From a virus, in the IMG/VR virus record IMGVR_UViG_3300027057_000001, positions 1 through 64,000 of that record: a DNA stretch of 64,000 nucleotides; one strand, given 5' to 3'. Below are positions 1,935 through 25,572 of the stretch, piece after piece (within the stretch, counting starts at the first letter, position 1; each line of letters opens with the position of its first letter). Made by a program: the position numbers and the translations under genes. The notes under the pieces were generated by a model. That model saw only the letters and a program-made list of their open reading frames with translations. It was not told the origin of the DNA and made no database searches.

Positions 1935-2273
1935 CTAGTCCTCGAAGGAGACGGGCGCGTCTTCGCAGCCCGACCGGCGAAGGAACGCAGCCATCTCGGC
2001 CACGGCCTGTTCCGACGAGTCCCGAACGTGGGACCAGTCCCAGCACAGGGTCTCGCACAGGGTGCGGAGATCCACCTTACCGAAGCCATCGGCCATGAGC
2101 CACGCCTGCTGCCGCGTGTACTCGTCGAGCGTGTGGTAGAGCGCCCCACGCCCTGACAGGCAGCGGACCACAAGGTCCCAGTTCATCTGCTGCACGCGGG
2201 TCATGCAGCCCATCTCGTAGGGGGAAGGAACGGTGAAGGTAGCGGTGTTGGTGTTGGTGTTGGTGTGGGCCAT
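1935..2273 (-). CDS. early hypothetical protein (MAHTNTNTNT...)
   Basis: conserved leader ACGGAGGACACC-ATG and early promoter upstream. Confidence 0.75.
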   Translation of the reverse strand: MAHTNTNTNTATFTVPSPYEMGCMTRVQQMNWDLVVRCLSGRGALYHTLDEYTRQQAWLMADGFGKVDLRTLCETLCWDWSHVRDSSEQAVAEMAAFLRRSGCEDAPVSFED

Positions 2274-2295
2274 GGTGTCCTCCGTCGCTGAACAC

Positions 2296-2323
2296 AATCT
2301 AAGCACTGGTTTTGCACTGTCAA
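2296..2323 (-). promoter_or_regulatory. conserved early-type promoter TTGACA-N5-AAACCA-N5-TAGATT
   Basis: 16-bp spacer; same motif seen at 7 sites. Confidence 0.8.
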
Positions 2324-10500: not shown

Positions 10501-10528
10501 AATTTAGGGGATGGTTTGCGATTGTCAA
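10501..10528 (-). promoter_or_regulatory. early-type promoter driving uvrD
   Basis: TTGACA-atcgcAAACCAtcccc-TAAATT. Confidence 0.75.
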
Positions 10529-11043
10529 GCCCTCTTCGTGGCCTTGCACTTCGGGAAGTCGATGCACCCGTAGAAGGGGGTGAACTGCTTCTTCGCGCCA
10601 CGCTTCGGTCGGCGGAGAGCCATCGGGCAGCCGCAGTCGGGGCAGACCTCGATCTGATGGGCCTGACCGTAGCCCTCGCGAATGGTGTCGGTCAGCCGGT
10701 CCAGGCACGCCTGGGGGCGGTCTTCCGGGTGGAGGTTGTTCGGAGCGGTGCGGAGCACCTTCCGAGACTTGCCCAGGGGCCGGAACTCGCCGTCGAAGAT
10801 GACGCCGACGACAACGCGCATGGCGTCCGAGTCACACACCCGGAGACGGTCTGCACCCTCGGTCAGGGTGGTGTACACGCGGAGCGCGCCGCGCCCGGAG
10901 TGGTGGTTGTACTCGAAGACCACTTCGCGACCCTGAACGGTCTCCTGATAGGAGCCGCCCGCGCTGACGATCTTGTCGCCGACCGCGCGAAGAGCGAGAA
11001 GAAGAGCCTGAGCGGTGATTTCAACGAATCTCGACTTTGCCAT
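10525..11043 (-). CDS. protein with C-terminal topoisomerase-type C4 zinc ribbon
   Basis: CPDCGCPMALR..FYGCIDFPKC; conserved early leader. Confidence 0.75.
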   Translation of the reverse strand: MAKSRFVEITAQALLLALRAVGDKIVSAGGSYQETVQGREVVFEYNHHSGRGALRVYTTLTEGADRLRVCDSDAMRVVVGVIFDGEFRPLGKSRKVLRTAPNNLHPEDRPQACLDRLTDTIREGYGQAHQIEVCPDCGCPMALRRPKRGAKKQFTPFYGCIDFPKCKATKRA

Positions 11044-11065
11044 GGTGTCCTCCGTCCTCCCTCAC

Positions 11066-11093
11066 AACCTAACCAATGGTTTGGCTCTGTCAA
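11066..11093 (-). promoter_or_regulatory. early-type promoter
   Basis: TTGACA-gagccAAACCAttggt-TAGGTT. Confidence 0.8.
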
Positions 11094-12160: not shown

Positions 12161-12472
12161 TCACCTTGCGGGCAGCCCATCCTGGTCCCTGCTGACGATC
12201 TGCACGGTGACCCGGATGTCGCGCACGGCACCGGCAGCCATCATCATCGTGCGGATCGCTTCGGCGTGCTTGCCCCGGCGACCGATGAGAGTGCCGGTGT
12301 CGGTGTCGTCGCAGATGACCTCGAAGGCGATGAAGCCACGACCCTGGGCCGGGTTGACCACCACCTCTTCGGGCCTGTCCACGATCATCTTCGCCATGTG
12401 GACCAGAAGCTCTTCCAGTTCCACGAACGGGTCTGGTTGCTCCCTCATCACCTTCTCCTCGGCTGCGCCCAT
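12161..12472 (-). CDS. khpA: single KH-domain RNA-binding protein, KhpA-like
   Basis: IVDRPEEV..DTGTLIGRRGKHAEAIR (GxxG loop). Confidence 0.85.
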   Translation of the reverse strand: MGAAEEKVMREQPDPFVELEELLVHMAKMIVDRPEEVVVNPAQGRGFIAFEVICDDTDTGTLIGRRGKHAEAIRTMMMAAGAVRDIRVTVQIVSRDQDGLPAR

Positions 12473-18757: not shown

Positions 18758-18785
18758 AATCTATGGTCTGGTTTGCGATTGTCAA
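18758..18785 (-). promoter_or_regulatory. early-type promoter
   Basis: TTGACA-atcgcAAACCAgacca-TAGATT. Confidence 0.8.
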
Positions 18786-21191: not shown

Positions 21192-21219
21192 TTGACAATC
21201 GCAAACCAGTGGATAGGTT
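21192..21219 (+). promoter_or_regulatory. early-type promoter
   Basis: TTGACA-atcgcAAACCAgtgga-TAGGTT. Confidence 0.8.
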
Positions 21220-21241
21220 CTAGGCACGGACGGAGGACACC

Positions 21242-21802
21242 ATGGGCGTTTACACATACACTCTCAGGACCAAAACTCAGAACCTCGAACTGCCTGGTGG
21301 CGAGGTCGTGGTGGCGAACGTCATGGCGTACCTCTGCCGGTCGAACGACCACGACATGACCTTCATGTGGCCCGGCGACTACGGCTACAAGGAAGGGCTC
21401 CTGCTCAACGCCGCCATCGAGCGGTGCCAGGACCGCTTCTGGAACAAGGGAGAGGTCTACATCATCCACGAGGACTCGAAGCAGGGCTACGAGGTCTACA
21501 AGGCCGAGGACGCCCACAAGGCGTGCGTCTGGTACGACTGCGATGCGATGACCTCCATGGAGGGCGTCACGCTCGTCGGGCGGCTGGGTTCGCGCGTGCG
21601 CCGGGGCCGGAAGTTGGTCTGGACCGTCATGGCCGACGACGAGGCCGAGGCGTTCGACAAGGCCGAAGAGGAGAAGCGCCGGGCCGAGCGCGCGGAGCAG
21701 AAGCGGAAGCGCATCTTGGCCCGCGTGAAGGCGTACCAGGAGAAGATCGCGCAGAGACAACGGGAGGCCCAGGACGCCTCCCTCAACAGCGCTGGCCTGT
21801 AG
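21242..21802 (+). CDS. early hypothetical protein
   Basis: GGACGGAGGACACC-ATG leader. Confidence 0.75.
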   Translation: MGVYTYTLRTKTQNLELPGGEVVVANVMAYLCRSNDHDMTFMWPGDYGYKEGLLLNAAIERCQDRFWNKGEVYIIHEDSKQGYEVYKAEDAHKACVWYDCDAMTSMEGVTLVGRLGSRVRRGRKLVWTVMADDEAEAFDKAEEEKRRAERAEQKRKRILARVKAYQEKIAQRQREAQDASLNSAGL

Positions 21803-22349: not shown

Positions 22350-22377
22350 TTGACAACTCAAAACCAAGCCTTAGATT
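22350..22377 (+). promoter_or_regulatory. early-type promoter
   Basis: TTGACA-actcaAAACCAagcct-TAGATT. Confidence 0.8.
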
Positions 22378-22399
22378 GTTGATACGGACGGAGGACACC

Positions 22400-22816
22400 A
22401 TGACACTTACCAAGACCATCACCATCACCGAGACGGCAGCGAACGGCTGGAAGCGCGAGACGACGAAGCGCGTCCCTATCGAGGCTGACGACTCCTGGGG
22501 CATGTTCACGACGGCGGGCAACAAGAGCCTCCAGAAGAAGGCCCAGCGGCTCCTGACCCGCGTGGAGAAGTTGCTCGACCAGGACAAGGCGAGCCGGAAG
22601 AACGTGCGCGCGGCGTGCGTGACATTCGTCGCGGGCTGGGAGCGCATGTCCTACTCGAAGACGATGGGCGAGGCTGGTGACTCAGATGTCAGGGGGTGCG
22701 TGGCTGGCTTCGTGGACGAGATCTGGGAGGCCGTGTTCGGCGAGAGCAACTGGGACCTCTGGGACGAGGTCAGCAGCGAGGCGTATCGGCGAGTGCGCGC
22801 AGAGCGCAACAAGTAG
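22400..22816 (+). CDS. early hypothetical protein
   Basis: GGACGGAGGACACC-ATG leader. Confidence 0.75.
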   Translation: MTLTKTITITETAANGWKRETTKRVPIEADDSWGMFTTAGNKSLQKKAQRLLTRVEKLLDQDKASRKNVRAACVTFVAGWERMSYSKTMGEAGDSDVRGCVAGFVDEIWEAVFGESNWDLWDEVSSEAYRRVRAERNK

Positions 22817-22829
22817 GACGGAGGACACC

Positions 22830-23303
22830 ATGGCACGACTGAAGGTGACGAGCATCGAGCAGAGGGATCGAGACTGGCGCGACCGCGAAGAGAAGGTCCG
22901 CGTCTACATCTTCCCCGAAGGGGAGGGCGTCTTCTCGAACCTCATCAACCGGCACGACCGACCCCACAAGCTGTACCGGGCCGAGGTGATGCCGAAGGTG
23001 CTCGAAGACCTGGGACTGGAGCCCACGGCGAAGTACCGCTGGAGCCAGAAGTGCGGGTGCTCGTGCGGCTGTTCCCCCGGCTTCATCATCAGCGGCGACT
23101 TCCGGCGACTGGATGTCTACGTGAAGTGCGAGCCCATGGACGAGGAGAACGACGTGGACGCCGCGAAGCTGTCAGACGAGCCCGACCAGGCGCGTCGGCT
23201 CTCCAGAGCGGCGGACCTGGATGCGGACCCGACAATCCCCGTGAGCCTCACACCGGAGGCCAGGGCCTTTCTCGACGAGGTGGACAATGCGACGACGGAC
23301 TGA
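22830..23303 (+). CDS. early hypothetical protein with WSQKCGCSCGCSPGF motif
   Basis: GGACGGAGGACACC-ATG leader. Confidence 0.75.
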   Translation: MARLKVTSIEQRDRDWRDREEKVRVYIFPEGEGVFSNLINRHDRPHKLYRAEVMPKVLEDLGLEPTAKYRWSQKCGCSCGCSPGFIISGDFRRLDVYVKCEPMDEENDVDAAKLSDEPDQARRLSRAADLDADPTIPVSLTPEARAFLDEVDNATTD

Positions 23304-23514
23304 GCAGTGGGAGATGGAGATCGAGGCCCCAGAGACCTGTCCCGTGTGCGGAGGCGACAACAGCGAGAGCGCCAGCGGGTTCTGCTCCCTGGCGTGCGAG
23401 AACGCCTACATGGACGAGCAGCGCAGGCGCGACGACGAGTACGCGCGGGACCTTCAACTGGAGATCCAGGAGTACCCGCCCGACGTGGTGAGAAAAATCA
23501 TGGGAGGGTGTTGA
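23287..23514 (+). CDS. small Zn-finger protein
   Basis: CPVCG..FCSLAC. Confidence 0.6.
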   Translation: MRRRTEQWEMEIEAPETCPVCGGDNSESASGFCSLACENAYMDEQRRRDDEYARDLQLEIQEYPPDVVRKIMGGC

Positions 23515-23538
23515 CAATAGCAAACCAGTGCTTAGATT
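23511..23538 (+). promoter_or_regulatory. early-type promoter driving the ncRNA array
   Basis: TTGACA-atagcAAACCAgtgct-TAGATT. Confidence 0.8.
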
Positions 23539-23781
23539 GAGTTCAGGCAGGGAGGAACGGAGGCCGACGATGAGCTAGAGAAAAGCCGATACCCCGCCAG
23601 CCAATGGACAAAGTGATGGCTGGGGCGAGGCGGGGTGGCGAGATACCAGCCGACTTCAACCATAGAGCCCCCAACGGGCGGGGCAGAAAGCGAGAGGTTC
23701 GACATGGTCTAAGTCAGGGGCAGGAGAGCGGGTGACCCGGCACCTTCCTCCACAGCCCCATCGCAGCCGGGTGGCCGATAT

Positions 23782-23967
23782 GCCCAGTAGAAGCAGCGAC
23801 GGGTCAGCGTTGCCCCCTAGCCAGGGGCTTGAAAGACCCGGTCACCACGCGAGGATTGTTCCACGCGGGTGGAGGTGGATGGCCCCACTTTGTAGCGGTG
23901 GCGCGAATGCTTCGTCCATGAGCCTGGCTAGCACATGGATTCGGTTCAACTCCGATGCTGGGCACCA
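23782..23967 (+). ncRNA. expanded tRNA-like RNA 1 (186 nt)
   Basis: acceptor GCCCAGT/GCTGGGC plus ACCA; T-arm TCGG-TTCAACT-CCGA. Confidence 0.7.
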
Positions 23968-23979
23968 ATGAGGTCTTTT

Positions 23980-24163
23980 GGCTCGTGGAGCAGCGCATCG
24001 CGCAAGTCTGAACGCCTTGGCCAGCGGGAGGATGCGGTGCCACCCGGAGGGGTGGAGAAGGGGCTGACCTCTTCTTCTCGTAGCAGGGGCGAATGCTCCA
24101 AGCCCACCCGTGCAGGTCAGCAGGGGGTGGGTTCGCCGGGTTCGATCCCCGGACGGGTCACCA
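23980..24163 (+). ncRNA. expanded tRNA-like RNA 2 (184 nt)
   Basis: acceptor GGCTCGT/ACGGGTC plus ACCA; T-arm CCGGG-TTCGATC-CCCGG. Confidence 0.72.
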
Positions 24164-24167
24164 TTAT

Positions 24168-24360
24168 GGTCTTGGGAGCAGGTTGACGGTCAGTGCAGGG
24201 TGGAGCGCGACGGCGCGGAGACACCCGGCTGCATACGGACCTGGGCAGGTGTAGCCTTCTCCCCCTCTCCAGCCCTGCCTGGAAGGTCGTCGGGTTGATC
24301 GCCGATGGACGCCTTGTGGGTCTGGCGGAAGCGTGGGTTCGAGGCCCACGGGGGCCACCA
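24168..24360 (+). ncRNA. expanded tRNA-like RNA 3 (193 nt)
   Basis: GGTCTT/GGGGCC plus ACCA; T-arm CGTGGG-TTCGAGG-CCCACG. Confidence 0.6.
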
Positions 24361-24394
24361 GTTGACAAGTGTTTTTGAGTGTGTAGGTTGAGAA

Positions 24395-24499
24395 CGCTGC
24401 GGTTGTCCTCCGCAGTAGGTGATCCGACGTAAGTCTCTATCCGTCGGATTCTCCGTCCTAGAGCCCCCTGGGGTGGTGCCCGGGGGGCTCGCTTTTTGT
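24395..24499 (+). ncRNA. putative three-hairpin small RNA
   Basis: TTGACA-16-TAGGTT promoter at 24362, two hairpins, terminator, no ORF. Confidence 0.6.
24461..24499 (+). terminator. rho-independent terminator
   Basis: GAGCCCCCTGGG/CCCGGGGGGCTC stem then GCTTTTTG. Confidence 0.8.
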
Positions 24500-24552
24500 T
24501 CTGGGTGTGGACCCCATGGTAGGGTGCGGGGCTTTGTGAAGGGAGGTGGTCC

Positions 24553-25572
24553 ATGTCTTCATGGTCATCAAAGGCGAAGGGGGTGATGGTGGCAGTAGCG
24601 GTGGTGATCGCTACCGCTGTGCTCGTCGCGCTCATTCCGCTTGTCACCTGCGAAGAAGAGGCCGAGGCGGCGAGGCCCAGCCTGACCGAGCAGCGTGAAG
24701 CTCGACTCGCCAAGGCGAGGGCCGAAGCGCAGGCTCGACGAGAGGAGTGGGCTGCGCGTGACAGAGAGCGCGAGGAGCGCTGGGAGAGGGAGCAGGCCGA
24801 GGCAGAGGAAGAGCGAGCCCGCATGGAGGCGGAGTTTGCTGCGAATGCCGAGAAGCGGGAGCGAGAGCGCCGTCTGCGGCGACGGCGAGCCAGGGACAAG
24901 CTCTGGCTACTCCGAAGCCCCCAGGCCATCAGAGAGGCGCTGTGGGCCATTCCACGCGAGGGAGGCCACGAGGAGACCGTGGCAGCGCTGCACCGCATCT
25001 GCATCTCCGAGGCTGGCTGGAGGCCCGAAGCTCTGCGCGACTGCGTGTGGATCTGGCAAGTCGTTCAGAACATCCGGTCCAGGTCGTGCGACAGAGACCG
25101 TGGGCTGATGGAGTGCGACGAGAACGGCGAGACGTACCTGTCGGCGATGCGGCGGCTCTCCGGTCGGATACTCGATGAGAGCAAGGCCAGGACGGTTCGG
25201 CAGCGGTTCATCTCGAAGCTCGACCTGACGTGCGAGCGGCCCATGTTCTTCCCCCGTGGCGATAGCTGGGAGCGCAACCTGAAGCGTCCCTGTGAGCGCA
25301 TGGCGAGGGAGGTCAGGGCCATCGTGCAACTGAAGGCCGACCGGAGGCTGACGAACGGGGCGAGGCCCATCGCCTGGGGTGGTCGGTGCGAGGACAGCGG
25401 TGGAGCTTGTGACGACGAGATCGCTTGCAGGCGCGGGCTGGCTCGCATCCCTGGCTCGAAGACCTACAACGCCTTCTGGTGCCGACCCGGGACGTCCGGG
25501 TGTAGGGACACCATCGATCCGGTCTGCACGCCTGGCGGCAAGCGCAGGCCGGTACTCGCCTCGAACCCCTAG
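24553..25572 (+). CDS. membrane-anchored protein, possible SleB/Hydrolase_2-like cell-wall enzyme
   Basis: N-terminal TM helix, coiled coil, LHRICISEA..VWQVVQN resembling LAxxIxxEA..VxxN. Confidence 0.45.
   Translation: MSSWSSKAKGVMVAVAVVIATAVLVALIPLVTCEEEAEAARPSLTEQREARLAKARAEAQARREEWAARDREREERWEREQAEAEEERARMEAEFAANAEKRERERRLRRRRARDKLWLLRSPQAIREALWAIPREGGHEETVAALHRICISEAGWRPEALRDCVWIWQVVQNIRSRSCDRDRGLMECDENGETYLSAMRRLSGRILDESKARTVRQRFISKLDLTCERPMFFPRGDSWERNLKRPCERMAREVRAIVQLKADRRLTNGARPIAWGGRCEDSGGACDDEIACRRGLARIPGSKTYNAFWCRPGTSGCRDTIDPVCTPGGKRRPVLASNP

Follow-up and report, generated by a model that had tools for sequence, protein, structure and literature searches.

Why do several unrelated small genes of an uncultured phage carry one and the same short leader directly in front of their start codons, and is a small unit without open reading frames (ORFs) in the same genome, which displays sequences complementary to this leader, the gene of a regulatory RNA acting on them? 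The initial annotation of this locus had proposed that a single trans-acting small RNA (sRNA) silences the dispersed genes by blocking their shared ribosome-binding site (RBS). Control of phage genes by phage sRNAs is, to our knowledge, almost always exerted by cis-antisense RNAs or single-target immunity RNAs of temperate coliphages. If true, a trans-acting sRNA that silences dispersed early genes via a standard leader would represent a new timing means for a large lytic phage, and it would explain the identical 5' untranslated region (5' UTR) on otherwise unrelated small genes. Promoter, leader and sRNA would then form a compact and portable regulatory kit, and phage-encoded KhpA proteins would obtain a first functional context.

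The window analyzed here comprises the first 64 kb (64,000 nt) of a 100,682-bp IMG/VR virus record, which is estimated to be 53 % complete; this phage is designated G000. Its DnaB-like helicase shows merely 23-27 % identity to isolates, hence there is no close cultured phage. Moreover, nothing matched among 50,697 phage records when the region 23500-25000 was searched by blastn and the protein from gene 24553-25572 by tblastn. Protein and pattern searches retrieved three relatives from IMG/VR, namely G001 (47 kb), G002 (a 35.6-kb fragment) and G003 (26 kb), in which the sRNA unit is found in synteny, with either the DnaB-like helicase or the downstream protein being homologous. The G+C contents of G000, G003, G001 and G002 amount to 63.4, 63.7, 54.5 and 48.7 %, respectively, and thus differ by up to 15 points despite ~86 % amino-acid identity in the DnaB-like helicase, a compositional spread that is unusually wide for close relatives. 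The helicase match in G002 covers residues 182-446 only, yet it extends over 1.9 kb of DNA (L082:6154-8043), and at the DNA level its pieces are ~1.1-1.3 kb apart, which suggests inserted elements (intein or intron).

A non-coding unit with its own promoter and terminator

The initial annotation had described a self-contained, ORF-free unit with its own promoter and terminator at 24362-24499. All features of this unit were recovered at their positions as sequence predictions (Table 1). The promoter is one of 13 matches of the pattern TTGACA-N15-18-TAGNTT in the window, where only 0.01 would be expected, and further copies of this promoter family occur beyond the 64-kb window. From promoter and terminator, the expression of a short RNA with the ends given in Table 1 can be predicted. 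The RNA 24395-24499 folds into three hairpins at -55.4 kcal/mol (z = -5.73), a stability reached by 0 of 200 shuffled sequences, and the coding GC3 signature is absent from every frame of the 1,038-nt stretch 23515-24552. The terminator stem (24461-24490) contains 10 G-C among its 12 bp and is followed by GCTTTTTGT.

Two parts of the unit are complementary to the leader, as had been annotated before. Hairpin 1 bears UGUCCUCCG at 24404-24412, which is complementary to the leader motif CGGAGGACA and represents its sole antisense copy, while CGGAGGACA itself is found seven times in the window versus 1.19 expected. The 10-mer TAGGACGGAG at 22814 (+) recurs as an exact reverse complement in the linker (24451-24460).

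The unit could not be assigned to a known RNA class. No Rfam family reached its gathering score within the window, and at E <= 10 the region 23500-25000 gave chance-level matches only, none of them of C4 type. The best sub-threshold Rfam alignment was ctRNA_pGA1 (RF00236; 20.6 bits versus a gathering score of 45, E = 0.31), the resemblance being limited to the G+C-rich terminator hairpin and the U-run of the sRNA. ARAGORN reported 0 tRNA/tmRNA genes in the window as well as in the whole 100-kb record.

Table 1. Positions of the predicted sRNA unit, its putative target leaders and associated features in the window
Feature	Position	Strand	Remarks
sRNA promoter TTGACA-N16-TAGGTT	24362..24389	+	member of the phage promoter family
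Predicted sRNA transcript, ~104 nt	24396..24499	+	start inferred at the G 7 nt after the -10
Hairpin 1, 7-bp stem, loop UUGUCCU	24396..24416	+	from the fold
Hairpin 2, 9-bp stem, 12-nt loop	24421..24450	+	sequence variable
Single-stranded linker CUCCGUCCUA, putative seed	24451..24460	+	complementary to (UA)GGACGGAG of the leaders
Intrinsic terminator, 12-bp hairpin and U-run	24461..24499	+	loop GUGGUG
Extended -10, TGnTAGGGT	24517..24525	+	conserved in 4/4 phages (TGnTAGGGT/TAAAGT), ~30 nt past the terminator
Predicted target leader ACGGACGGAGGACACC of gene 21242-21802	21226..21241	+	full 5' UTR behind promoter 21192
Predicted target leader of gene 22400-22816	22384..22399	+	behind promoter 22350
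Predicted target leader of gene 22830-23303	22814..22829	+	operon-internal, without own promoter; best predicted site, -11.8 kcal/mol
Predicted target leader of gene 10525-11043(-)	11044..11059	-	behind promoter 11093
Predicted target leader of gene 1935-2273(-)	2274..2289	-	behind promoter 2323; matched mainly via hairpin 1
Family promoters with CAAACCA box	2296-2323(-), 11066-11093(-), 18758-18785(-), 21192-21219, 22350-22377, 23511-23538		
Family promoters with other leaders, without CAAACCA box	1157, 2476, 19011, 24362, 31772, 34557, 47354		
KhpA-type KH-domain protein of the phage	12161..12472	-	KhpA/KhpB-type, PF13083, 56.6 bits

The shared leader of the putative target genes

In agreement with the initial annotation, the leader GGAGGACACC-ATG was found ahead of the gene starts 2273(-), 11043(-), 21242, 22400 and 22830, and it also precedes at least three genes outside the window (74659, 75179 and 84459(-)). 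In four of the five cases inside the window, the distance from the -10 of a family promoter to the leader is exactly 12 nt. If transcription starts ~7 nt downstream of the -10, A/G-CGGACGGAGGACACC-AUG would form the beginning of the mRNA and the leader would make up the whole ~16-nt 5' UTR. The designation of these genes as early follows from their promoter type only. No such leader was detected in the 35.6-kb fragment of G002, whose early region is cut off. The leader also contains three GGA motifs, a possible site for the CsrA protein of the host; genes for CsrA and Hfq were not found in the phage.

The spacing of the leader motif is constant with respect to the ATG, not to the promoter; the motif occurs at operon-internal starts as well (22830 here and 28442 in G001), and it is present in the targets in sense orientation without exception. 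Because the distance is kept to the ATG and operon-internal starts are included, the leader is probably an RNA or translation element and not a DNA operator. However, pairing with an sRNA is not the only reason that can be given for its conservation. A CAAACCA box in the spacer between -35 and -10 is common to the promoters of GGAGGACACC leaders and to the promoter of a non-coding RNA operon at 23511, and it is missing from the spacer of the sRNA promoter. This box may be bound by a second regulator as an operator, or it may reflect the duplication of a cassette. Since it tracks the leader-bearing promoters, the conservation of the leader is probably in part that of a duplicated promoter-UTR-RBS cassette. 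Hence, the earlier view that sRNA pairing accounts for leader conservation beyond a normal Shine-Dalgarno (SD) sequence holds only to some extent: it is favored by the association of the motif with the ATG, but a duplicated cassette of promoter, spacer box and RBS explains the conservation as well.

Conservation of the unit in related phages

The position of the unit is identical in the three relatives, just upstream of the homologue of gene 24553. Its architecture is most similar in G003, where the family promoter (L096:2469), hairpin 1, a short middle hairpin, the linker and the terminator are all present, with 19 of 21 nt of hairpin 1 being identical and both changes neutral or structure-improving. 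The unit of G001 is shorter (~68 nt) and consists of the promoter (L081:6227), a 4-5-bp hairpin, the linker and the terminator, without hairpin 1. In G002 no clear private promoter is visible, and linker and terminator close a ~225-nt ORF-free RNA that begins at a family promoter and carries a degenerate hairpin-1-like UGUCCCUCG. Hairpin 1, one of the two complementary parts named in the initial annotation, is therefore not a conserved feature, being present in the close relative G003, degenerate in G002 and absent from G001. At the site of hairpin 2 the relatives carry a shorter GGCC/GGUC hairpin.

The part common to all four phages is restricted to the 3' module, i.e. the unpaired linker UCCGUCYUA and the terminator hairpin. 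In the intergenic DNA of G001 and G002, BLAST alignments are limited to a few short blocks, among them the 47-nt stretch of linker plus terminator with 87-89 % identity. A total of 39 columns of the four-way module alignment do not vary, UCCGUC-Y-UA and the GUGGUG loop being among them, and the terminator helix shows 100 % pairing in each sequence and three compensatory double changes. In each of the four homologues the seed is predicted to be unpaired, and 0.8-2.7 kcal/mol would suffice to open it. Searches with a covariance model of the module gave a single copy in every genome (79-84 bits), and no score exceeded 16 bits in 20 loci that are more distant. Patterns combining seed and terminator retrieved only the three relatives from IMG/VR and one match among metagenome contigs. 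The results of two other searches were discarded: a single match of this pattern in GTDB (Myxococcaceae MAG) lies inside a coding region and is attributed to chance, so that it gives no hint to the host, and the 79 matches of a 15-nt hairpin-1 pattern in IMG/VR (16-29 nt) were all due to chance. Collectively, the data suggest an sRNA family whose 5' part varies while its 3' seed and hairpin are under constraint, and judged from the DNA of the four phages there is little doubt that the conserved sRNA gene is real and represents a new family of phage sRNAs.

Predicted pairing of the seed with the leaders

Raw duplex scans of whole genomes were uninformative, because hundreds of sites at or below -14 kcal/mol appear in these G+C-rich genomes. 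The start regions were ranked instead by duplex energy combined with opening energies in a windowed scheme, a type of check that the initial annotation had suggested. In G000, GGACGGAG-type leaders occupied each of the first five ranks among 117 start regions, with pairing to 24450-24461 and energies from -9.3 to -11.8 kcal/mol. Hairpin 1 is the predicted contact for leaders without the upstream GGAC (-6 to -8 kcal/mol), after its opening at a cost of ~10.8 kcal/mol. When the relatives were ranked with their own sRNAs, the leader family provided the best four of 74 sites in G003 and the best five real sites of 114 in G001, hence GGACGGAGG-type leaders came first in all three genomes with a visible early region. 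The preference is not that of a generic anti-SD sequence, since the leader sites had a mean of -9.1 kcal/mol compared with -3.3 kcal/mol for 39 other GGAGG sites (p = 3e-6), a comparison that is partly circular as the family is defined by the motif itself.

Further tests were directed at the complementarity as such. GACGGA, the complement of the seed, is present in 10 of 117 start regions versus 0.85 expected and is the most enriched hexamer besides plain SD cores. Watson-Crick matches of 9 bp and 8 bp to the 17-nt leader consensus were combined in 0.16 % of 20,000 dinucleotide shuffles and in 0.13 % of genomic 104-nt windows, and none of 116 linker permutations placed all five family members on top. 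A different picture emerged for the strength of pairing, which the initial annotation had expected to exceed that of shuffled sequences: 74-80 % of the shuffled sRNAs and 15-22 % of the linker permutations paired equally well with some start site. Dinucleotide-shuffled sRNAs lose the hairpins and become accessible, and the absolute energies of -9 to -12 kcal/mol are ordinary. Covariation between seed and leader was not observed, because neither partner differs between the genomes, apart from two C-to-U exchanges in the seed that lie opposite a G, retain G-U pairing and are not significant. The GUGGUG loop, which can form five Watson-Crick pairs and one G-U pair with the leader sequence CACCAU(G), was considered as a simultaneous third contact and rejected, since such a contact is geometrically impossible on a single leader and the complementarity is weak (coverage P ~0.01-0.03).

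A possible mechanism of repression

In the mechanism that we propose, a sigma-70-type RNA polymerase of the host would transcribe the sRNA from its family promoter, and the strong intrinsic terminator would end the transcript. The constant 3' module would expose the unpaired seed UCCGUCYUA (CUCCGUCCUA here) between the variable hairpin and the terminator hairpin, permitting its pairing with GGACGGAG in the ~16-nt 5' UTR that is common to about ten small genes. Most of the leader-bearing genes are located directly behind family promoters. Pairing at ~+3 to +10 of the target mRNAs would cover the SD sequence GGAGG near the mRNA 5' end, so that binding of the 30S subunit would be blocked and translation would stop, possibly followed by mRNA decay. 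In G000 and G003, a second site might be provided by the loop and stem of hairpin 1, where UGUCCUCCG could pair with CGGAGGACA and cover the SD together with the following ACA, which would extend the reach of the sRNA to leaders without the upstream GGAC. As the linker and hairpin-1 sites overlap by four nucleotides on the leader, they would act as alternatives on any one mRNA. Since the sRNA and its putative targets use the same promoter class, a self-limiting pulse of target proteins would be expected; the shared promoter type is at the same time a point against the model, because repression would begin at once.

The presence of a KhpA homologue in the phage, on which the initial annotation had built its suggestion of a chaperone, could be verified (Table 1), and a homologue also exists in G001 (57.3 bits). 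KhpA is a reasonable candidate for an RNA-binding partner or helper of the sRNA. From the original idea that one trans-acting sRNA silences a dispersed regulon, the independent conserved unit, the invariant unpaired seed and the first rank of the leaders have stood up to analysis, but the pairing energies are no better than those of controls. Translational repression of the leader genes by a trans-acting base-pairing sRNA of the phage is the most likely role of the unit, with chances that we regard as evenly balanced. The wider scenario of an RNA-based early shut-off, in which an apparently lytic clade would time at least about ten dispersed small early genes with one sRNA (carrying one seed, or two in some phages), possibly assisted by KhpA, is put forward more tentatively and appears somewhat doubtful to us.

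Several other explanations need to be considered. The sRNA could be real and conserved for another purpose: it might pair with an mRNA or another RNA of the host, or it might bind or titrate a protein, e.g. the phage KhpA or a host factor. In that case, its match to the leader would be a by-product of C/U-rich versus G/A-rich composition, or result from descent from an inverted leader cassette. The ordinary outcome of the energy controls, the retention of KhpA in G000 and G001, and the seed of G002 without a visible leader would all fit, and the conservation of the GUGGUG loop and the stem sequence beyond the needs of termination suggests sequence-specific recognition. Such a purpose nevertheless seems unlikely in view of the enrichment of the seed complement as the top non-SD hexamer in start regions, the first rank of leaders in three genomes, and the occurrence of two independent complementary stretches (P ~0.0015). 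A full-consensus promoter immediately upstream in three of the four phages is, in turn, difficult to understand if the module were mainly a cis element, i.e. a terminator for the ~0.85-kb non-coding operon upstream, which comprises three tRNA-like units behind promoter 23511, and an insulator of gene 24553, with the short RNA from promoter 24362 being a by-product or an attenuator leader without function in trans. The separate extended -10 of the downstream gene is conserved past the terminator, more distant homologues of this gene are entirely without the sRNA element, and a plain terminator would leave the invariant unpaired 9-mer unexplained. We consider a mere cis function rather improbable for these reasons, even though there is no terminator between promoter 23511 and 24461, the downstream gene starts within 54 nt, and in G002 the module ends a longer RNA without a clear private promoter.

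It might also be possible that the same pairing has another role, namely immunity or superinfection exclusion by silencing the early genes of incoming related phages with the same leader. Leader and seed are conserved in at least three related phages, which makes cross-silencing possible, and the c4 RNA acts in such a way (PMC12197685). The probability of this role appears small, because no integrase, serine recombinase or resolvase was found in the 100-kb record with its estimated completeness of 53 %, no repressor context was seen, and the sRNA promoter belongs to the class of the lytic early genes. Finally, GGACGGAGG and its inverted copies might act at the DNA level by binding a factor that regulates either the family promoters or the one past the terminator. 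In this regard, the inverted 9-mer in hairpin 1 is located at +15 to +23 from the -10, near the +12 to +20 of the cassette motif, and the linker lies ~76 bp upstream of the putative start of the downstream gene. Spacing that is fixed to the ATG and not to promoters, presence at promoter-less internal starts, the constant sense orientation in targets, and compensatory changes in the adjacent hairpin, which indicate selection on RNA structure, make a DNA element highly improbable.

Similarity to known systems

The closest logic to that proposed for the sRNA is probably found in the c4 RNA of phages P1 and P7, but here it would be aimed at a dispersed regulon; the sar RNA of P22 is also close. 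c4 is a small structured phage RNA in which short exposed stretches pair around the RBS and block translation in trans (PMC12197685). Like the sRNA described here, c4 possesses two separate complementary elements; however, it is processed from the operon of its single target (icd-ant) in a temperate phage and has an immunity role. In contrast, the present sRNA has its own promoter and terminator and about ten dispersed predicted targets with one standard 5' UTR, and no lysogeny genes were seen in the 100-kb record of the phage.

The sar RNA of P22 and the OOP RNA of lambda are likewise short, are transcribed from their own promoter up to an intrinsic terminator and repress a phage gene by pairing, and sar covers the RBS of ant. 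Both are cis-encoded and fully complementary to one overlapping gene, whereas the sRNA found here is trans-encoded and would use seeds of 8-12 nt. In the style of its seed, the phage sRNA resembles C-rich anti-SD sRNAs such as the 6C RNA of Actinobacteria and RoxS/RsaE of Firmicutes, which are Hfq-independent; unpaired C/U-rich motifs in their loops or linkers pair with the G-rich SD regions of several mRNAs. These RNAs are chromosomal and use generic C-rich motifs, while the seed of the phage sRNA extends into leader-specific flanks and discriminates against the 39 other GGAGG sites. The difference from what is known is therefore the combination of one sRNA, a dispersed regulon, a standard 5' UTR and a large, apparently lytic phage clade.

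Neighboring features

The extended -10 past the terminator is likely a separate promoter of gene 24553-25572, and the sRNA would therefore not simply be the leader of this gene. Its 339-aa product contains many invariant cysteines in the C-terminal part and has no Pfam or PHROG family, and 88 metagenomic homologues were collected at 31-79 % identity, the closer ones (P0001-P0007) at 58-79 %.

Upstream of the sRNA, three tandem RNAs of ~185-193 nt (23782-23967, 23980-24163 and 24168-24360) each show a 7-bp acceptor-like closing stem, a T-arm (GGTTCRA loop) and an encoded ACCA. They are found by ARAGORN only at lowered thresholds, and the acceptor stem is closed in all three minimum free energy folds. 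The sRNA promoter starts 2 nt past their last CCA. One homologue (u3 type) exists in G003, and none is evident in the corresponding regions of G001 and G002. In the non-coding operon, the family promoter at the 5' end is followed by a strong SD and by a mini-ORF of two codons (ATG AGC TAG; 23511-23578). The layout is kept in G001 (ATG GAC TAG, L081:5758-5835) and G003 (ATG CCC TGA, L096:1977-2056) with a different codon, and the mini-ORF may serve in ribosome loading or as a start-stop element where the long non-coding RNA begins. Furthermore, a 91-nt block of the operon (23683-23773) is 81.5 % identical in G001 (L081:5957-6047) and recognizable in G003 (~L096:2185-2260); it holds a CGGGUGACCCG hairpin and an anti-SD-like CCUUCCUCC stretch and is probably another structured RNA element.
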